From IMG/VR virus record IMGVR_UViG_3300045988_004631, positions 1 through 5,845 of that record: 5,845 nucleotides of DNA. One strand, 5' to 3'. Shown here piece by piece: positions 1 through 5,845 of this stretch (positions are counted from its first letter, which is position 1; every line of letters starts with the position of its first letter). The DNA comes from a virus. Position numbers and translations under genes: made by a program. Under the pieces are notes generated by a model that had not been told where the DNA came from, made no database searches, and saw only the letters and a program-made list of their open reading frames with translations.

Positions 1-77
1 TGCTCGAGTAAAGAACATTTTTTCCTCCTTTAGATTACGTTCAAGGTTACAGGCGGTTTTGCTTTGCCTTTGCCGTC
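1..77. repeat. Terminal direct redundancy, copy 1 (identical to 5769..5845). It indicates a circular 5768-nt genome with assembly overlap.
   Basis: A base-by-base comparison of 1..77 with 5769..5845 shows 77/77 identity. Bases 1..18 duplicate the 5' end of the VP3-like CDS (ATG at 16..18 on the minus strand). Bases 30..77 duplicate the 3' end of the VP5-like CDS. Confidence 0.95.
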
Positions 78-293
78 TTGCAACTTGTGTTTGTCGTTCC
101 AGTATTCGCCGTTTTCATCGTCGAACGTTGCGACTTTGAAAAGCGTGTAATCGCCTGCGTTTTTACCCAGCTGCTTTTCGTCGTTGCATGCGTCTTTGAA
201 TGCTCGGACTGCTGTGCCGTCGTTTACGCTTTCAAATCCGCCCATGAACTGTTCTGCGATGTTGTCTCGGACGCTGTAAATGTTGTGAATCAC
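30..293 (-). CDS. VP5-like (ORF5 family) small non-structural protein of Gokushovirinae, 87 aa
   Basis: The ORF is in the track. The pattern IYSVRD..AEQF...F...ND..AVRAF.D.....K.....AGDYTLFKVATFDDENGEY matches my recollection of Chlamydia-phage/gokushovirus ORF5 proteins (..F.V.D.K...Y..PF......A.R.F......(P)EDY.LY.IG.FD..TG). The start is GTG at 293..291, with GAGGAGG 9 nt upstream (302..308 on the plus strand). The stop is TAA at 32..30. Confidence 0.7.
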   Translation of the reverse strand: MIHNIYSVRDNIAEQFMGGFESVNDGTAVRAFKDACNDEKQLGKNAGDYTLFKVATFDDENGEYWNDKHKLQDGKGKAKPPVTLNVI

Positions 294-409
294 AGTCTAA
301 TGCCTCCTCGCATAGGTTTTGCCGAAAGGTTGATTGCTTTCGTCTTGTTTGCGGTTTTGTTGTAGATTTTTGCGTCTTTCCGTTTACGCGTTCTCGCTCG
401 GCGTGCCAT
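290..409 (-). CDS. Small, highly basic protein of 39 aa (MARRARTRKRKDAKIYNKTANKTKAINLSAKPMRGGIRL); candidate J/ORF8-like DNA-binding packaging protein
   Basis: Not in the supplied track; translated by hand. ATG at 409..407 is preceded by AAGGAGGG with a 6-nt spacer (minus strand: aaggagggactacaATG). Fourteen of 39 residues are R/K and only one is acidic. The TGA stop (292..290) overlaps the GTG start of the VP5-like gene (GTGA). It overlaps the 3' end of the 78-aa ORF by 26 nt in another frame. Small Arg-rich proteins (phiX174 J, Chlamydia-phage ORF8) are an established Microviridae feature. Confidence 0.7.
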   Translation of the reverse strand: MARRARTRKRKDAKIYNKTANKTKAINLSAKPMRGGIRL

Positions 410-620
410 TGTAGTCCCTCCTTAATAGTTCCATTTCAATGGAGTTTGCGAAACTTTTCATCATCCATATTTCGTCTATGATTTTTTTTGCGTCGTTCAT
501 GTCTGAGACCTTTCTAAGCATTTTGTATGCTCCTTCGATCTCCTTATATTTTTTTGTAAGTATGTTATTGAGCACTTCTTTGGGCTGGTCTCGTACGTTC
601 CATCCTTTGATGTCTAACAT
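384..620 (-). CDS. Hypothetical protein, 78 aa, predicted helical and charged, no recognisable family
   Basis: The ORF is in the track. ATG at 620..618 is preceded by AAGGAGGA with a 5-nt spacer (minus strand: caaaggaggaataaaATG). It lies in the same orientation and is tightly packed within the operon. I recognise no motif. Confidence 0.6.
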   Translation of the reverse strand: MLDIKGWNVRDQPKEVLNNILTKKYKEIEGAYKMLRKVSDMNDAKKIIDEIWMMKSFANSIEMELLRRDYNGTPSENA

Positions 621-621
621 T

Positions 622-726
622 TTATTCCTCCTTTGCGTTCATGTCGTTCGCAATCAGTGCATGGTAAATCTTATCCAGCACCTCAAGGATTTTCTTCAGC
701 GTCTCCATTGCTTCGGTAAAGTTCAT
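622..726 (-). CDS. Hypothetical micro-ORF, 34 aa (MNFTEAMETLKKILEVLDKIYHALIANDMNAKEE)
   Basis: Not in the track; translated by hand. Its ATG (726..724) overlaps the TAA stop of the M15 peptidase (728..726), forming TAATG. A GGGGGTGA Shine-Dalgarno-like sequence lies 7 nt upstream. Its TAA stop (624..622) sits 1 nt before the ATG of the next ORF. It fills the gap between its neighbours exactly, but short ORFs can arise by chance. Confidence 0.4.
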   Translation of the reverse strand: MNFTEAMETLKKILEVLDKIYHALIANDMNAKEE

Positions 727-1118
727 TAAATCACCCCCTTTCTGTATTTATCTTCTCGCACGTCTACATGAACAAAATTTGTGTAGCGAATAACCCCGCC
801 GTGGTTTTTCATGATTTCGCTTGCGTATTCTGCAACTTCTTTGCTTGTGTAGCCTTTTACTCTGATGTCTGCCGCCATACCTTTGCAGTGGTATGAGTTC
901 CCTGCACCGCCTACTTTTGTGTTCCATGCTGGCGTTCTGTATCCGCTGTTGATAATTACCGGGCTGTTGAAGTGTACTCTTATTTCTTCTAGTACTTGGA
1001 GAAGTTCTCTGCATACTAGTATTTCTTTACTTCCGTCTTTGCATTTGAATTCGTTTGCCTTAAAGTGCTGTGTGATGTAGTACGTTCCTTCTCTTATGCA
1101 ATAGATTGTTTTTTTCAT
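726..1118 (-). CDS. Peptidase_M15_3 family zinc D-Ala-D-Ala carboxypeptidase-like peptidoglycan hydrolase, 130 aa; putative lysis enzyme
   Basis: The motifs SGYRTPAWNTKVGGAGNSYHCKGMAADI and YTNFVHVDVR match the H-x6-D ... H-x-D zinc-ligand pattern of the Peptidase_M15_3/M15A family. I prefer ATG at 1118..1116 (MKKTIYC...), which has a GAGGG Shine-Dalgarno 8 nt upstream. The track's TTG start at 1199 lies upstream of the predicted promoter. Confidence 0.88.
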   Translation of the reverse strand: MKKTIYCIREGTYYITQHFKANEFKCKDGSKEILVCRELLQVLEEIRVHFNSPVIINSGYRTPAWNTKVGGAGNSYHCKGMAADIRVKGYTSKEVAEYASEIMKNHGGVIRYTNFVHVDVREDKYRKGVI

Positions 1119-1139
1119 TTTTGCTTCCCTCTTTTCTGT

Positions 1140-1168
1140 ATTGTATAAAATCCTGTTCGCTTTGTCAA
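1140..1168 (-). promoter_or_regulatory. Sigma70-type promoter: TTGACA, 17-nt spacer, TACAAT
   Basis: The minus strand reads TTGACAaagcgaacaggattttaTACAAT. The -35 box is the reverse complement of 1163..1168 and the -10 box is the reverse complement of 1140..1145. The spacer is exactly 17 nt. An A/T-rich stretch lies upstream (aaaagttttttacaaaaa). The -10 box is about 22 nt upstream of the M15 ATG. Confidence 0.65.
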
Positions 1169-1204
1169 GGGTTTTTGTAAAAAACTTTTGGCAAAGCAAA
1201 CAGG

Positions 1205-1219
1205 AACGCCGCAGGCGTT
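1205..1219. other. Short GC-rich hairpin (aacgcc-gca-ggcgtt) followed by T5 on the plus strand
   Basis: 1205..1210 pairs perfectly with 1214..1219 around a 3-nt loop. A T-run at 1218..1222 gives it plus-strand terminator-like geometry, although no credible plus-strand gene exists. Confidence 0.4.
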
Positions 1220-1309
1220 TTTAACATTTTCAACATAGTTTTCAACATTTTAACATTGTTAAACTTTAGCATAACAGAGTGTTTTAACAATTCAACAACT
1301 TTTTAACAA
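1219..1309. repeat. Array of at least 7 direct iteron-like repeats TTTT(C)AACA(T/A), plus one inverted copy
   Basis: ttttaacat occurs at 1219..1227 and 1248..1256. ttttcaacat occurs at 1227..1236 and 1239..1248, giving an A-B-B-A arrangement. An inverted copy forms the palindrome ttaaca-t-tgttaa at 1250..1262. A second cluster has ttttaacaa at 1282..1290, ttcaacaa at 1291..1298 and tttttaacaa at 1300..1309. A further ttcaac occurs at 1368..1373. The 11-mer taacaattttt occurs at 1304..1314 and again at 1574..1584. Confidence 0.75.
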
Positions 1310-1321
1310 TTTTTTCCACAA

Positions 1322-1340
1322 GCTTTTTTACTAAAAAAGC
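1322..1340. other. Perfect 8-bp A/T-rich inverted repeat gctttttt-act-aaaaaagc
   Basis: 1322..1329 is the reverse complement of 1333..1340, with a 3-nt loop. Confidence 0.5.
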
Positions 1341-1418
1341 GCATATCTGCGTTGTAAATTATTGCTTTTCAACTTTTAAACTGTCTCTACTACTTCTCCT
1401 ACAACAAGTATATAAATA

Positions 1419-1486
1419 ACACGCATGTGTGCGCGTGCGCGCGCGTGCGCGTTTCGTGCGCGTGTGCGCATGTGCGTACATGCGTG
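1419..1486. repeat. Alternating purine-pyrimidine (CG/TG/CA)n tract, potentially Z-DNA forming
   Basis: 1419..1452 (34 nt) and 1455..1486 (32 nt) each alternate Pu-Py without exception and are separated only by tt. The heptamer GTGCGCG occurs at 1429, 1435, 1445 and 1456. The tract ends are inverted repeats: cacgcatgt at 1420..1428 and acatgcgtg at 1478..1486. Confidence 0.85.
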
Positions 1487-1507
1487 AACTTTCGAGCGAA
1501 TGCGAGC

Positions 1508-1578
1508 CGGCGGTGATAAGGCCGATAGGCCGCCCGCCGTGCCGGGGTGTTAGGGGGTGAGCGGAACACCCCCTAACA
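1508..1578. other. GC-rich nested and tandem hairpins
   Basis: cggcgg (1508..1513) pairs with ccgccg (1534..1539), enclosing ggcc-gata-ggcc (1520..1531). Next comes a perfect 12-bp stem, tgttagggggtg (1548..1559) with caccccctaaca (1567..1578), around the 7-nt loop agcggaa. It is followed by TTTTT (1580..1584). Confidence 0.7.
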
Positions 1579-1593
1579 ATTTTTATCTGTAAT

Positions 1594-1623
1594 AAAAAAA
1601 CTCCATACCCTAAAGGCATGGAG
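1594..1623 (-). terminator. Rho-independent terminator for the minus-strand transcription unit
   Basis: The minus strand reads cuccaugccuuuaggguauggag followed by U7. The stem is about 9-10 bp including G-U pairs, and the U-tract is the reverse complement of 1594..1600. It lies about 65 nt downstream of the VP4 stop, which ends the last gene of the cluster. Confidence 0.75.
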
Positions 1624-1639
1624 TTTTAAATCTTATTTC

Positions 1640-1685
1640 GTCATCAAGCCAAGTACCAGCCTTGTCAGGTACTTGGCTTGATGAC
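1640..1685. other. Perfect 18-bp stem with a 10-nt loop, starting 2 nt after the VP4 stop codon
   Basis: gtcatcaagccaagtacc (1640..1657) is the exact reverse complement of ggtacttggcttgatgac (1668..1685). The loop is agccttgtca (1658..1667). No U-tract follows on the minus strand, so it is not a canonical intrinsic terminator. Confidence 0.85.
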
Positions 1686-1687
1686 AC

Positions 1688-2704
1688 TCACATTGTTCCA
1701 CTGCTCTTTCGGAACTTGTGAATTTTACGTTCCTGCGCTGATAAATAGCTTTCAAGCTTAATGTCTGTTTGTTCCATCTTGTTTTTGGTTGAATCCATGG
1801 CTTTTTGTTGCCTTTGGCGCTTGATTTCCCATAGACGTTTCGGATCTTCTGCTTCCATCTGCTTTTCAAAATAACGTGGTATTGCCGCTCTTTTGCCGTT
1901 GCTAAGCTGGATGTATCCTTGTTTCCAGATTTCTTCTTTGTGTTGCAGATAGTATTCTTCGCCTAGACCCGGCTTTAAACTCATCATTGCAAATGGTGGT
2001 CTTAATCCTCTTTTGATGTGTTCCATGGTTTCATCGCCAATTTTTTTTGTTACATAGCCTGCTGTGTAGCTGTATGCCTTACTTGTTGCCGGTTCACTCA
2101 TGTTGTGGATACCATATGGCCAGCATTTTGTTATGCGTGTGTCTGTGTAGTATCCTTCTTTGCTGAGTAGTCTGTACGGCTCTAGCTTTTCTGGATTGTA
2201 ATTGAACAAAATCAGATGATAGTGCGGTCTCCCGGTGTGTTCTCCATATTCACCCGCACAGAAATAGCGTATTCCCGGCCCTGCGGCCTTTCTGAGACGT
2301 TTTAGAAACTTCTGAATGTCCTCATACCATAGTGTTTGATTCTCCTTTAAATCGCCTTTCTGCCGCTTGTAGAGTGCCCCGCGTATTACTTCGCCTGTTT
2401 CGTGGTTAATGCCCGGTATGTTTTTGTCGTCATAGGTTAATGTGACAAACCATACTGAGTGAGGTTTACTTGTTTTTGCTTCCATTTCGATTCTGCAAGC
2501 CCAGTCTTCTCTTTTTCGGATTCGGCACCCGATGCACTGCCCGCACGGAATGAGCATTACATCTTTTCTATAGATTAAGTCTTCATAGGTTAAATCAGGT
2601 TTTTTTGCTCTTTCAATGGCAAAGCGCCGGAGCGTGTAAACACGTCCCGACGCTTCGCGATCGTCTGGCGCATAAAACCTGATAAGAGGTTTATAGCATG
2701 CCAT
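1688..2704 (-). CDS. VP4-like replication initiation protein (HUH rolling-circle endonuclease, Microviridae type), 338 aa
   Basis: It carries RCR motif 1 (FVTLTY), motif 2 the HUH box (PHYHLILF), and motif 3 with paired tyrosines (YSYTAGYVTKK; compare phiX174 gpA Y-x3-Y..KK). An N-terminal Cys cluster (CGQCIGCR) is typical of gokushovirus VP4. The ATG at 2704..2702 overlaps the VP2 TAA stop (TAATG). Confidence 0.95.
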   Translation of the reverse strand: MACYKPLIRFYAPDDREASGRVYTLRRFAIERAKKPDLTYEDLIYRKDVMLIPCGQCIGCRIRKREDWACRIEMEAKTSKPHSVWFVTLTYDDKNIPGINHETGEVIRGALYKRQKGDLKENQTLWYEDIQKFLKRLRKAAGPGIRYFCAGEYGEHTGRPHYHLILFNYNPEKLEPYRLLSKEGYYTDTRITKCWPYGIHNMSEPATSKAYSYTAGYVTKKIGDETMEHIKRGLRPPFAMMSLKPGLGEEYYLQHKEEIWKQGYIQLSNGKRAAIPRYFEKQMEAEDPKRLWEIKRQRQQKAMDSTKNKMEQTDIKLESYLSAQERKIHKFRKSSGTM

Positions 2705-3606
2705 TATCTTAAATAATCACCCGGCTTTCTCTGCTGTCCATAGCTTCCCGTTTTGTCTGTTGCTTTGATTGCGCGGTCTGTTGATCCTGCAACTCTTTGC
2801 TGTGCTTTGCCTGCATCATAACTCGGTTTTGCAACTTTGTCTGTTACGATGTTTACATTGTCTTTCAGCTGTTGCCAGCTCCTGCCGCTGTTTGCTCCTT
2901 GCTGGAAATAACTGCTTACTCCCTGTGCAAGGTTCACGCTGTCGCTGAAACTGCCGTAACTGTTGGAACTGAATGCTGGACTTCCCAATGCACTGATGCT
3001 TGCCGCGCTTGTGCTTCCCAGTCCTACGCTTGCGCCGCCTACGCTTCCAGCACTGCCGCCGCCCATTGCCGCGCCGCCGTTGAGTGCCGCTAAAATCGGG
3101 TTGATTCCTGCGGCCCTCATGTCTGCAACGGCTCTTTGGTATGCGGTACTGCTCATGTGCTCTTGCCATTCTCGATTGAGTGCGGCTTCTGCGGAGTTGT
3201 AGGCCATGGCTTCGCGCATTAGGTCGGCGTTCATGCGCCCTTGTTTGTTCATCAACATACTGTTGAGCAATCCTTGGTAGCCGCTTCCTGCCATGTTGTA
3301 GATTCCTTGTGCGCTCATGCTTCCCAGATTTCTGAGCCATCCGCTAAGCTCTGTGTTTCGGTTTGTGCTGTCGTTCGTTCCTCCTGAGCTTTCGCTGTGG
3401 CTGTTTCCATAGCTCCAGTTAGAACTACTGCCTCCTCCTGCTGTCCAGCCTTGGTTTTGGCTGTAATTGAACTTGTTGGATGCGTTAAACTGTGCTTGGT
3501 TTTGGTTCAGTCCTTTGAACTGGTTGTACAGGTTTCCGACCGTTCCGGCAATGTTTCCAATTGTTCCTACTGCTTTGATTGCTGTTGGCAACCATTCCAG
3601 TGCCAT
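2704..3606 (-). CDS. VP2-like minor capsid / DNA pilot protein, 300 aa
   Basis: The conserved central block AYNSAEAALNREWQEHMSSTAYQRAVADMRAAGINPILA matches the gokushovirus VP2 signature (..MS.TAYQR...D...AG.NP.LA). It is flanked by low-complexity regions rich in G, S, N and Q. The ATG at 3606..3604 has AGGAGG upstream. It sits directly downstream of VP1. Confidence 0.9.
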   Translation of the reverse strand: MALEWLPTAIKAVGTIGNIAGTVGNLYNQFKGLNQNQAQFNASNKFNYSQNQGWTAGGGSSSNWSYGNSHSESSGGTNDSTNRNTELSGWLRNLGSMSAQGIYNMAGSGYQGLLNSMLMNKQGRMNADLMREAMAYNSAEAALNREWQEHMSSTAYQRAVADMRAAGINPILAALNGGAAMGGGSAGSVGGASVGLGSTSAASISALGSPAFSSNSYGSFSDSVNLAQGVSSYFQQGANSGRSWQQLKDNVNIVTDKVAKPSYDAGKAQQRVAGSTDRAIKATDKTGSYGQQRKPGDYLR

Positions 3607-3618
3607 TTTAACACCTCC

Positions 3619-5298
3619 TTAGTGGTGGTCAATCAGGCCCGGCACGCTGTACATCGGCATAGGACGCACGGTCGTGTTTTTGACAAGGAAATCTGCAATG
3701 AATTGCGGTTCGTTTACCTTGTTTTCAACTGCGAGTGTTCTTGCGATTTCTGCACTTCCTTCTTTCATCCACTCTTGACTGAGTGCCGGCGTATTGGCGT
3801 AGTTGTCACCATAGTGCCAGCTGTCCAGCGTTCCGGTCGCATTGGATCGGAACGCACCACAGATGCGATTGGGCTTCATTCTGTAATCCGCCCACGCCTC
3901 TTGGTAGCCGAACGCCTCGTTGTCGGTGTCTGTACCCTGTGCGTATAGTTCCTTTTTAAGCACTGCCTGTTCTCCCAAATTTGCGAAAACAGGGAAGTAA
4001 TAGTCAAGCTTGTTTTTTCGGCTGAACATGCGTTCTAGACCCTGCTGGTACGTGTGGTCATGGCGTACACAGCATACGCCGATAACAAACCCGTGCTCTT
4101 CAAAGCTCTTCGTAAAAGCGCTTTTGCCAAAGCCTGTAACTGACATTGCCGCTACGTTGCCCTGCGGGCTTGTTTCCGTTGTGCCGCTTGTCTGAATTAC
4201 CTGGTTCATGTTAATCATGATTCGGTCGCCGCCCAGATATTCAGGAATCTGGACAGTTTTATCAGAAATGCGAGTTCTGAACAGACTGTAAATTTGTTCG
4301 CGGTATCGACTGCCGCCGCGTGCCAGTTCTTCAAAGTACTTCTGCACTTGAAATGCCTGTCGCAACTGGTTGATTGTTGCACCGGTTATGGCGCTGAGGT
4401 CTGCGCCAAGGTATGTTGGACTTCCGTTTCTTCCCCAAAGCATTGACAGACCGTCTTTTTCTGCTCCTATTTGTCCAATTTGTACTTCTTCTCCTGCTTC
4501 TGCTCGTCCTACTGTGTAGAATGTCTTTGTTTCTCCTACTACTGGGTTTGTTCTGTCTTTGTCTGTGTATCCCATTATCGGCGCATTGCCCAACATAGGA
4601 ATTGTGACGCTTTCTGCAGAACGCTGAGGCGAGGGCAAAGTACTGCTGAAGTAGTCGTGGAACCGGTTCACCGGCAGAGGTCTCCCGCCTGTGTATGCTT
4701 CCTGCAGGATGGTTTCCAGTGTTGCATCTTTGCCACTGTCCTTATAGGTTACATCTGCGTCTTTGTCCGTGTTGATTGCCGGGTTGTCCACGTTCTGGTC
4801 CCGGAACCACTCGTTCCAAATCTTGACGTATGCGCGGATAGGAAGCGCGTTGATATTCAGTTCACCGGTTTCACCGATGATTTTGGTTGGCACGCCCATA
4901 TAGTCGAGAATGCTATTTTCCAGCGGGAACTTGTTTTCTGCCGTGCCGCCTTTGATTTTCAACTGCGGCACTGTGTATTCGGTCTGCTGCACCCACGGGT
5001 CATCTGTGACTTCTCCCATGAATTCCTTCCAGTGTTCCCACAAAATACGGTCAGGACAGAAGAAGTAATAGTAATCCAGATAACAGTTATCCATTACCGG
5101 GAAGATAGGCGTGCTCATGCGCACCAGTCCAACGTTGTCGATTGAAAATGTGTCACCGGGAAGCACTTCATCGACGTAGAAAGGAATAAGCTGGCCTGCA
5201 TCGAATGTCAGCTTGATATCTTGGTCACGTTTGAAACGGCTTCGCGTGATTTCCAAGTTCGGCACTTGGTTGAAATGTGCTTCGTTGTTTCTTTTCAC
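3619..5298 (-). CDS. VP1 major capsid protein (Microviridae F-like jelly-roll, Gokushovirinae-type length), 559 aa
   Basis: The N-terminal signature is HFNQVPNLEITRSRFKRDQDIKLTFDAGQLIPFYVDEVLPGDTF. C-terminal blocks are WADYRMKPNRICGAF and TVRPMPMYSVPGLIDH. All are typical of gokushovirus VP1. The start is GTG (5298..5296), with AAGGAG 10 nt upstream, and it overlaps the VP3 TGA stop (GTGA). Confidence 0.96.
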   Translation of the reverse strand: MKRNNEAHFNQVPNLEITRSRFKRDQDIKLTFDAGQLIPFYVDEVLPGDTFSIDNVGLVRMSTPIFPVMDNCYLDYYYFFCPDRILWEHWKEFMGEVTDDPWVQQTEYTVPQLKIKGGTAENKFPLENSILDYMGVPTKIIGETGELNINALPIRAYVKIWNEWFRDQNVDNPAINTDKDADVTYKDSGKDATLETILQEAYTGGRPLPVNRFHDYFSSTLPSPQRSAESVTIPMLGNAPIMGYTDKDRTNPVVGETKTFYTVGRAEAGEEVQIGQIGAEKDGLSMLWGRNGSPTYLGADLSAITGATINQLRQAFQVQKYFEELARGGSRYREQIYSLFRTRISDKTVQIPEYLGGDRIMINMNQVIQTSGTTETSPQGNVAAMSVTGFGKSAFTKSFEEHGFVIGVCCVRHDHTYQQGLERMFSRKNKLDYYFPVFANLGEQAVLKKELYAQGTDTDNEAFGYQEAWADYRMKPNRICGAFRSNATGTLDSWHYGDNYANTPALSQEWMKEGSAEIARTLAVENKVNEPQFIADFLVKNTTVRPMPMYSVPGLIDHH

Positions 5299-5786
5299 TC
5301 TTTCTTTTCTCCTTTCATTTCGTCAATCTCTGGTTTTTCGTCAATCTCTGGTTTTTGATTCAATCCCAGTGCTTCCATCCAGTCTGCCCTGCCAAATCTT
5401 GCTATGAACTTGTCAACGTCATTATCGAATTTTTGCTTGACTTCACGCGGCAGTTTGTCCCATGTCTGTTCTGCCTGAATCATCAGGTTCTGTGCTTCCG
5501 CCAGTGTGCTCGGCATGTTCGTGAAATCCTGCGGTTCTGCGTCGCTCAGCTGTGCGCCCAATTTTTGTACAATGCTCGGGTCAAAAGCCGCGCGGTTGAT
5601 GATGTTTTCGATTTTCGTTTCTTCCAAATAGCTCTGGATTTCTGCGTCTCTGTCGATTTCTTCATCCTGCACAAGGCTTTTGTTTCCCTTGTCATCGTAT
5701 GTCCAACGAAAAGTAAGGCGGGTTTTTCGGCCCGCCTCTGTCTCTTTTCGTTCCTTCTCGTTATGATTTGCTCGAGTAAAGAACAT
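5295..5786 (-). CDS. VP3-like internal scaffolding protein, 163 aa
   Basis: The block DFTNMPSTLAEAQNLMIQAEQTWDKLPREVKQKFDNDVDKFIA matches the conserved gokushovirus VP3 scaffold motif (D.T.MP.SL.EAQN....AE..F..LP..VR..F.N....F). The ATG at 5786..5784 has AGGAGG 5 nt upstream. The acidic C-terminus contains a KPEIDE duplication. Confidence 0.87.
   Translation of the reverse strand: MFFTRANHNEKERKETEAGRKTRLTFRWTYDDKGNKSLVQDEEIDRDAEIQSYLEETKIENIINRAAFDPSIVQKLGAQLSDAEPQDFTNMPSTLAEAQNLMIQAEQTWDKLPREVKQKFDNDVDKFIARFGRADWMEALGLNQKPEIDEKPEIDEMKGEKKE
5321..5356. repeat. Perfect 18-bp tandem duplication (cgtcaatctctggttttt x2) inside the 3' end of VP3
   Basis: 5321..5338 is identical to 5339..5356. 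The duplication is in frame and encodes KPEIDE-KPEIDE near the VP3 C-terminus. Confidence 0.95.
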
Positions 5787-5845
5787 TTTTTCCTCCTTTA
5801 GATTACGTTCAAGGTTACAGGCGGTTTTGCTTTGCCTTTGCCGTC
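5769..5845. repeat. Terminal direct redundancy, copy 2 (identical to 1..77)
   Basis: See copy 1. Bases 5798..5845 are a truncated second copy of the VP5-like 3' end and should not be counted as a separate gene. Confidence 0.95.

Follow-up and report, generated by a model that had tools for sequence, protein, structure and literature searches.

A DnaA-box and DnaA-trio-like module resembling bacterial chromosome origins in a clade of gut gokushovirus-like microviruses

The Microviridae serve as the textbook example of single-stranded DNA (ssDNA) phages that replicate by rolling circle, and gokushovirus-type members dominate many gut viromes; to our knowledge, the origins and hosts of gokushovirus-type microviruses are largely unmapped. 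The window analysed here, positions 1 to 5,845 of IMG/VR record IMGVR_UViG_3300045988_004631 (5,845 nt), is a complete circular microvirus genome of 5768 bp, with bases 1–77 recurring at 5769–5845, and its minus strand carries every gene. The sole long non-coding region (1128–1687, from the VP4 end to the endolysin gene) contains a dense array of short direct repeats, which raises the question of which protein these repeats serve, and for what purpose. A preliminary description made from the sequence had taken them for possible iterons of the phage Rep protein, VP4, within a candidate origin module. The evidence assembled below suggests instead that the array is probably the DnaA-box cluster of an oriC-like unwinding module (~1218–1420), opened by host DnaA on the double-stranded replicative form.

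Exact copies of TTTYAACA lie on the plus strand at 1219, 1228, 1240, 1248, 1282, and 1301, and elsewhere in the window only at 3606; the seven observed compare with 0.89 expected, and none of 200 whole-window dinucleotide shuffles reaches seven. Comparison with shuffled AT-rich sequence, as called for in the preliminary description, gave a similar picture: in the AT-rich region alone (71% AT, with dinucleotide-preserving shuffles of that region as the control), TTYAACA was counted 7 times against 0.42–0.53 expected and TTTYAACA 6 times against 0.26–0.29, with a strand bias of 7:1, and the observed counts were matched in 0 of 5000 shuffles. Weaker copies are found at 1291–1297 (TTCAACA) and 1272–1276 (TAACA), together with one inverted copy, and the AACA cores follow each other at intervals of 9, 12, 8, 21, 13, 8, and 11 nt. 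Thus, the TTTT(C)AACA array is real, with exact and weaker direct copies and one inverted copy far above shuffles. Its T/A tracts are also phased, the 10.5-bp periodicity being matched in none of 2000 shuffles and the strongest such signal in the genome; the seven 120-nt windows with the strongest 10.5-bp phasing genome-wide all start within 1201–1321.

Two finer points of the preliminary description held only in part when close relatives, namely three GenBank fecal microviruses (L001–L003, ~86% identity) and four IMG/VR contigs, were compared. The A-B-B-A layout is literally present at 1219–1255 but is not kept by these relatives, and it looks incidental because L001 has the C-type unit in all four places. 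Similarly, TAACAATTTTT does recur at 1574–1584, as the 3′ arm plus T-run of a hairpin, but the claim that the motif brackets the GC-rich island is not borne out by conservation, because the closest relatives lack 1490–1590 or have other sequence there.

Read on the gene strand, the array becomes the distal box cluster of a module spanning ~200 nt (1218–1420). In the window, the order on this strand is an AT-rich stretch (1420–1408), trinucleotide repeats resembling DnaA-trios (1407–1387), a 4-nt spacer, and a box pair (1382–1366), with eight further co-oriented boxes (1320–1218) beginning ~45 nt beyond the proximal pair. The parts are as follows.

1408–1420: AT-rich stretch of 13 nt, GTATATAAATAAC on the plus strand, ~85% AT, in the position of an unwinding element
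1387–1407, minus strand: DnaA-trio-like run 5'-TTG TTG TAG GAG AAG TAG TAG-3'
1383–1386: 4-nt spacer, AGAC on the minus strand (GGGC, GGAG, or GGGG in relatives)
1374–1382 and 1366–1374, minus strand: overlapping proximal box pair, AGTTTAAAA and AGTTGAAAA, respectively, adjoining the trinucleotide repeats
1218–1320, minus strand: distal array of eight DnaA-box-like 9-mers, comprising the next eight lines
1312–1320, minus strand: distal box TGTGGAAAA, a perfect TTWTNCACA
1300–1308, minus strand: distal box TGTTAAAAA
1289–1297, minus strand: distal box TGTTGAATT
1281–1289, minus strand: distal box TGTTAAAAC
1247–1255, minus strand: distal box TGTTAAAAT
1239–1247, minus strand: distal box TGTTGAAAA
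1227–1235, minus strand: distal box TGTTGAAAA
1218–1226, minus strand: distal box TGTTAAAAA
1257–1263, plus strand: sole inverted copy of the repeat, TGTTAAA, forming with 1249–1255 the palindrome TTTAACA-T-TGTTAAA

This arrangement is that of the published basal unwinding system (BUS) of bacterial origins, which consists of a box, a spacer of ~4 bp, at least three NAN trios, and an AT-rich region, the published trio consensus being 3'-GAT-5', that is, 5'-TAG-3'. The spacer between box and trios averages 4 bp (Pelliciari 2021). In the window, five consecutive NAN units (TAG GAG AAG TAG TAG, 1401–1387 on the minus strand) stand beside the spacer, and the box lies on the TAG strand, 3' of the TAG run and across ~4 nt, as in oriC. 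The upstream box cluster of an oriC has its counterpart in the eight co-oriented boxes within 1218–1320, of which one matches the relaxed DnaA-box consensus TTWTNCACA perfectly and four match it with one mismatch. The site itself is not chromosomal and does not adjoin dnaA or dnaN, being located in a microvirus genome between VP4 and the endolysin gene, and for that reason the element is filed as a BUS variant rather than as a chromosomal oriC.

The link to bacterial origins was examined by scanning a set of one genome for each bacterial species with the signature TAGTAGTAG-N4-TGTKGAWAA, which matched at least 120 bacterial loci; dnaA and/or dnaN adjoins the match in 92 of the 120 examined, the match lies between the two genes at every one of the 67 loci that have both, and a median of 80 nt separates it from the dnaA or dnaN match. 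The signature thus serves as a diagnostic mark of oriC. Bacterial oriC loci share the order of AT-rich DNA, trios, spacer, and box, and in the 92 linked to dnaA or dnaN the box is placed relative to the TAG run exactly as in the phage modules. Matches with the T-variant of the box are at dnaA/dnaN in 18 of 30 cases, among them gut Clostridia, Ruminococcus, Acutalibacteraceae, and Christensenella metagenome-assembled genomes that read 'AT-rich ...TAGTAGTAG GGGG TGTTGAAAA TGTGGAAAT'. Related boxes appear in published work as well: TGTTGATAA occurs in Thermoanaerobacter origin oligonucleotides, and TTATCAACA has been called a DnaA box in Cyanothece. Furthermore, the complete scan of IMG/VR with the G-type signature, TAGTAGTAG-N4-TGTGGAWAA, returned 111 stretches, 89 of which are microviruses of the present clade and two of which are host origins.

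Among relatives, the module is widely conserved, in answer to the question of motif conservation that the preliminary description had posed. All seven close relatives keep the array, with TGTTGAAAA or TGTTAAAA as the gene-strand unit and TGTGGAAAA at homologous positions; to the right of the array, all relatives have TTGTTG TAG NNG TAG TAG TAG adjoining the AT-rich stretch, which is 12–40 nt long in these genomes, and most carry (TAG)3 or more. The 21-mer trio pattern was found in at least 119 IMG/VR stretches. Among the loci retrieved, 84 are microviruses with VP1 and VP4 homologues, their VP4 being 33–97% identical to that of the window, and a second, independent retrieval via the distal box cluster yielded 69 new short loci, with the exact trio pattern in 51 and near-variants in ~10 more. 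The general order is often a GC-rich purine-pyrimidine palindrome, then AT-rich DNA, AACTTGTTG TAG NNG TAG TAG TAG, 4 nt, the overlapping box pair, ~55 nt, 3–4 boxes, a short inverted repeat, and another 3–4 boxes; the inverted repeat between the two distal box groups occupies the position homologous to 1257–1263. Even in genomes with VP4 identity as low as 33% and VP1 identity as low as 41%, the module is retained, and its most conserved part comprises the trios, the 4-nt spacer, and the AT-rich stretch. The GenBank records sharing the module have nothing annotated at it.

In composition, the unit is of the DnaA-box family. Across 85 modules, ~10.3 boxes per module are co-oriented, against 0.9 pointing the opposite way; the box consensus is T-G-T-(T.84/G.16)-(G.91/A.09)-A-A-A-A, and adjacent boxes are spaced 8, 9, 11, or 12 nt apart and almost never 10. 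An unbiased 7-mer search of the modules counted TGTTGAA 562 times against ~1 expected and TGTGGAA 87 times against 1.7. In relatives, the dominant box TGTTGAAAA alternates with TGTGGAAAA and with the canonical TGTGGATAA, which occur in 76 and 18 copies, respectively, where other genomes have TGTTGAAAA; the proximal pair is held by TGTGGAAAA/AGTTGAAAA or TGTTGAAAT/TGTTGAATA. In 65 of the 85 modules, a 4-nt spacer separates the trios from the best box. In one sub-lineage, to which the window does not belong (L028 at about 3825–3896 and at least 15 other modules), an intact 23-codon open reading frame (ORF) between the proximal and distal boxes encodes a hydrophobic peptide, MNFYPWNDIFWLILMLILLWITC, with conservative substitutions, and overlaps several boxes, including the canonical TGTGGATAA; its product may be a small membrane or lysis peptide.

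The box composition also bears on the proposal that the array serves another host protein, such as a Spo0A-like regulator or a nucleoid protein, or acts as curved DNA activating a promoter. TGTTGAA is one mismatch from what we take to be the Spo0A box, TGTCGAA, the 10.5-bp phasing of the A/T tracts is stronger than anywhere else in the genome, and a strong promoter lies downstream. The variation at box position 4, between T and G, is toward the DnaA box; C never occurs there among 875 boxes, and the Spo0A-box reading was rejected on this count. The distance from the array to the −35 element varies among relatives, with an insert of ~130 nt in L001–L003 and different downstream sequence in others, so that of the features expected of curved DNA or an UP element the phasing is present and a conserved adjacency is absent, and the linkage of the boxes to trios and an AT-rich stretch is left unexplained. 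This proposal is distinctly improbable.

That VP4 binds the repeats as iterons of a rolling-circle double-strand origin and nicks nearby, as initially proposed, has several points to recommend it: the repeats are direct, their spacing is roughly helical, they lie in the main intergenic region near the rep gene end and hairpins, and the AACTTG conserved beside the trios resembles CAACTTG of the phiX174 origin. No co-variation of the repeats with VP4 is seen, the same consensus unit being present over the whole 33–97% range of VP4 identity, and the motif and arrangement are those of bacterial chromosome origins; indeed, the reading is not supported because TGTTGAAAA alternating with TGTGGAWAA also marks bacterial dnaA-dnaN spacers. 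The TAGTAGTAG signature was found in none of 12 other Microviridae examined (phiX174, Chp2, phiMH2K, SpV4, and 8 others), yet a CTTGAT-loop hairpin is present in 8 of the 11 non-phiX genomes. Strict boxes number two at most in the 8 other Microviridae scanned, and only scattered loose matches on both strands were seen in the 4 reference phages. Of the original proposal, therefore, the idea of an origin module survives, in that the array belongs to a conserved origin-like module, and VP4 as its binder is now very unlikely. Other phage-encoded binders were also considered and rejected: Pfam and PHROGs show no sequence-specific DNA-binding domain in the small ORFs, and some of the module-bearing genomes have only poorly conserved versions of VP5 and a basic J-like peptide, or none that can be detected. 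Not one phage protein is conserved in every carrier of the module (median identity is 36% for VP5, which could not be detected in one clade), and a host factor is therefore the better fit.

The orientation of the module is also not fixed. In otherwise collinear genomes, it is inverted in place relative to its flanks in L002 (about 4200–4410), L012, and L092, and in a clade of 13 genomes whose VP4 is 33–40% identical to the window's it lies on the opposite strand, upstream of VP4, with its AT-rich end 44–191 nt from the VP4 match (71 nt in ten). A strand-specific Rep origin would hardly be expected to occur both ways round with respect to the genes, and an element free in its orientation is therefore a duplex element. 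The flips also concern a separate, conserved hairpin that keeps its own orientation:

1640–1685: perfect 18-bp hairpin directly after the VP4 stop, with loop 1658–1667

Its loop sequence is TGACAAGGCT in gene-strand sense and AGCCTTGTCA in plus-strand sense, the latter being replaced by CTTACTTGATAG in most relatives. This hairpin, which stands apart from the DnaA module, was found in 82 of 84 module-bearing genomes without any change of orientation relative to the genes, its stem shows compensatory changes (L007), and its loop in the clade has CTTG(A/T) on the non-coding strand, a motif resembling CAACTTG|ATA of the annotated phiX174 rep_origin. It is 26–236 nt from the AT-rich end of the module in 79 genomes, and on the box side of the flipped module in L002, L012, and L092. 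Comparable CTTGAT-loop hairpins are on the coding strand in Chp2, SpV4, and 6 of 8 fecal and insect-associated microviruses examined (the hairpins outside the clade include L326 2904–2941, L328 512–544, and those of L330–L337). To judge from these features, the hairpin at 1640–1685 is a better candidate than the repeats for the VP4 nick site, or for a strand-specific (ssDNA) origin element, and the search for the nick site moves accordingly from the repeats to the CTTG-loop hairpin.

At the 4-fold sites of VP1, the coding strand of this clade is A-rich and T-poor (A.39, T.13); the same sites are T-rich (T.51–.73) in Chp2, SpV4, phiX174, and 4 of 8 others, with T at.24–.30 in the other 4. The clade may therefore package the strand antisense to its genes, because the CTTG loop and T-richness are both on the window's plus strand. 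A role of module orientation in setting the packaged strand was rejected, because the VP1 composition is equal in both module-orientation classes and follows the genes.

Orientation further bears on a single-strand (complementary-strand) origin acting on the incoming ssDNA, for instance by offering a DnaA-box hairpin to an ABC-type primosome or in the manner of an sso-like element. Such an element is needed by ssDNA phages, and a short inverted repeat between the box groups and long flanking palindromes are available. The boxes themselves lie outside hairpin stems, and the module occurs in both orientations with respect to genes and hairpin, whereas such origins are strand-specific; we consider this explanation extremely unlikely.

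The main rival is that the boxes do bind host DnaA, with the module acting as a sink that titrates it away from the host chromosome, comparable to datA or to the 'inc' effect of DnaA-box clusters on multicopy plasmids, or as a DnaA-controlled switch of the adjacent promoter, without any opening for replication. Multicopy DnaA-box clusters perturb initiation in Bacillus subtilis and Escherichia coli, and this known effect is one point in its favor. Each module has ~10 boxes, denser than in sampled bacterial dnaA-dnaN spacers, and the window combines an intact distal array with degenerate proximal boxes. The window array is, in addition, directly upstream of the best promoter match:

1140–1168, minus strand: sigma-70-type promoter match TTGACA-17-TACAAT, 11/12 consensus, the best in the window, preceding the M15 peptidase gene

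The array is situated ~50–150 nt upstream of the −35 element of this match (1168–1140). The location upstream of a strong promoter given in the preliminary description is thus correct for the window, but the adjacency is not conserved in L001–L003. There, an extra GC-rich block of ~130 nt (CCTAGGACAGGAGCGCC...CTTTATTGGC; L001 4290–4420, L002 4070–4200, L003 4920–5050), which the window lacks, stands between promoter and array; in many of the more distant relatives, the module is followed by a different GC-rich block, conserved and of structured appearance (..AAAGGCAGTCCGGCGAGCGAAACCG..GTCACGTCATGCTCTTCGCACGGCGCACCGCGCCTA..). Neither the distance to the promoter nor the orientation relative to it is conserved, and the most conserved parts of the module would be needless for a sink or an operator. 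Since trios and AT-rich DNA are best conserved, the sink or switch is weakened as an explanation, and we regard it as unlikely.

An oriC-like module opened by host DnaA remains the preferred explanation, and several observations weigh against it. In the window, the proximal boxes are degenerate, AGTTTAAAA having 4 and AGTTGAAAA 3 mismatches to TGTGGATAA, and the AT-rich stretch is only 13 nt long. The dominant box TGTTGAAAA departs from the canonical one at C6 of TTATCCACA, a position that matters for E. coli DnaA binding. The density of boxes, far above that of sampled bacterial spacers, would also suit a DnaA sink or regulator. Only a core of ~35–65 nt aligns between phage modules and bacterial oriC loci, and there is therefore no sign of recent capture from a sampled host; AACTTGTTG, conserved beside the trios, is absent from bacterial origins; and we know of no need for DnaA in a rolling-circle ssDNA phage.

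The strict BUS rule asks for a box with at most 2 mismatches to TTATCCACA, or a species-specific box, 0–16 bp from the trios (Pelliciari 2021). With TTATCCACA and 0–16 bp, 55 of 85 phage modules pass. The window alone fails with the E. coli motif because its proximal boxes are degenerate, a further point on the opposing side; AGTTGAAAA (1366–1374) has 3 mismatches to that motif, and it passes when TGTTGAAAA, the variant of the clade and of Clostridia, is used instead, with 1 mismatch. A non-consensus trio-proximal box is also known from B. subtilis, where box#7 overlaps box#6.

By analogy with bacterial origins, host ATP-DnaA would fill the boxes via its domain IV on the double-stranded replicative form, and the DnaA oligomer, starting at the proximal boxes, would extend along the TAG strand of the trios and melt the adjacent AT-rich DNA (1408–1420), as in the B. 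subtilis basal unwinding system. A continuous oligomer is favored because the boxes are closely packed (8, 9, 11, and 12 nt) with helically phased A-tracts. DnaA binding and unwinding at the module are predicted here from its sequence. As to the use of the opening, we prefer a host-initiator-dependent start of replication or of duplex maintenance, in which helicase loading of the theta type would follow; a second possibility is that melting helps to expose the neighboring hairpin origin to VP4. It is conceivable, if rather doubtful, that this clade of gut gokushovirus-like microviruses carries a working host-type origin besides its HUH Rep, with the duplex form started or maintained like a mini-chromosome and coupled to the host cell cycle.

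If the proposed role is correct, more than 100 microvirus genomes would contain the opening module of a bacterial chromosome origin, recruiting the host initiator DnaA. A working host-type origin would, in turn, imply a plasmid-like persistent state in a family regarded as strictly rolling-circle and lytic, and would offer a concrete hypothesis for the persistence of gut microviruses in their hosts. The box variant TGTTGAAAA, common to the oriCs of gut Clostridia, Ruminococcus, and Acutalibacteraceae, would provide a new handle on host assignment. Literature on Microviridae with DnaA or oriC, on phage DnaA-trios, and on Microviridae stem-loops and nicking contained nothing describing this element, and in the first of these fields no prior report of a DnaA origin module in this phage family was found.

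The surroundings of the module in the window are as follows.

3619–5298, minus strand: VP1 capsid
2704–3606, minus strand: VP2
1688–2704, minus strand: VP4, HUH Rep
5295–5786, minus strand: VP3 scaffold
30–293, minus strand: VP5, PHROG 'DNA binding protein'
726–1127, minus strand: M15 peptidase (endolysin)
1590–1627, minus strand: intrinsic-terminator-like hairpin with T-run, downstream of VP4
1420–1486: GC-rich, alternating purine-pyrimidine imperfect palindrome with 32-nt arms, 75% complementary, and a 3-nt center

The palindrome at 1420–1486 is made of GCGCGTGCGC-type units and has, by its sequence, the potential to form a cruciform, Z-DNA, or an ssDNA hairpin. L001 and L003 have it unchanged, and L004 and L005 almost unchanged, in contrast with the overall identity of only ~86% of L001–L003; in most relatives, including many distant genomes, a version of this palindrome adjoins the module at its AT-rich end. 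A second palindrome (1151–1205, 26-nt arms, 85% complementary), centered just upstream of the promoter and kept in L004, takes in the −35 TTGACA plus a mirrored TTGGCA on the opposite strand, and could represent an operator or a divergent-promoter arrangement. A permissive-threshold Rfam scan of 1100–1720 gave only sub-threshold matches of generic hairpin or miRNA type, none over the array. Protein-coding readings of two minus-strand ORFs were rejected: that at 1359–1619 has no family match and is riddled with indels among close relatives, as is the region of that at 1165–1290. An Arg/Lys-rich short ORF at 296–412 on the minus strand (MARRARTRKRKDAKIYNKTANKTKAINLSAKPMRGGIR...) resembles a J/VP8-type DNA-condensing peptide; of the 84 module-bearing genomes, 68 have a detectable J-like basic peptide, and none was detected in the clade whose module lies upstream of VP4.

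Among known systems, the closest likeness is to the BUS of bacterial oriC, with which the phage module shares co-oriented boxes, an overlapping proximal pair, a ~4-nt spacer, TAG-type trios, AT-rich DNA, and upstream boxes; the exact TAGTAGTAG-N4-TGTKGAWAA is common to phage modules and the dnaA-dnaN spacers of many bacteria. At C. difficile oriC2, three boxes come before the trio CACCTACTACTATTACTACTATGA and the unwinding element comes after it, and both this origin and B. subtilis incC (box#6/#7, trios, and AT-rich DNA) have the element order and relative orientation of the phage module. Unlike bacterial oriC, the module resides in a 5.8-kb ssDNA phage with an HUH Rep, away from dnaA and dnaN; its ~10 boxes are tightly packed and mostly of the T-variant TGTTGAAAA; the phage-specific AACTTGTTG stands by its trios; and it is often flanked by a GC-rich purine-pyrimidine palindrome and may have either orientation.

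Other systems are alike in single respects. The origins of P1 oriR, pSC101, F, and R6K belong to mobile replicons that recruit host DnaA via origin boxes, and in this recruitment resemble the phage module; their boxes are paired with iterons of their own initiators, their mode is theta, and trios are not known as a defining feature. A distant blastn search of PLSDB plasmids with a typical module gave no match. With phiX174 and rolling-circle plasmid origins, this phage has in common a homologous HUH Rep, and CTTG-type motifs like CAACTTG|ATA of phiX174 are found near the module, in the loop at 1658–1667 on the plus strand and in the AACTTG by the trios; unlike in those origins, the window repeats are away from the putative nick hairpin, show no co-variation with Rep, and have no fixed orientation. 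Finally, E. coli datA and the DnaA-box clusters of B. subtilis, which titrate or regulate DnaA, are dense clusters outside the chromosomal origin, as is the phage module, which would be present in many copies during infection; unlike the phage module, they have no adjacent trio run and unwinding element.

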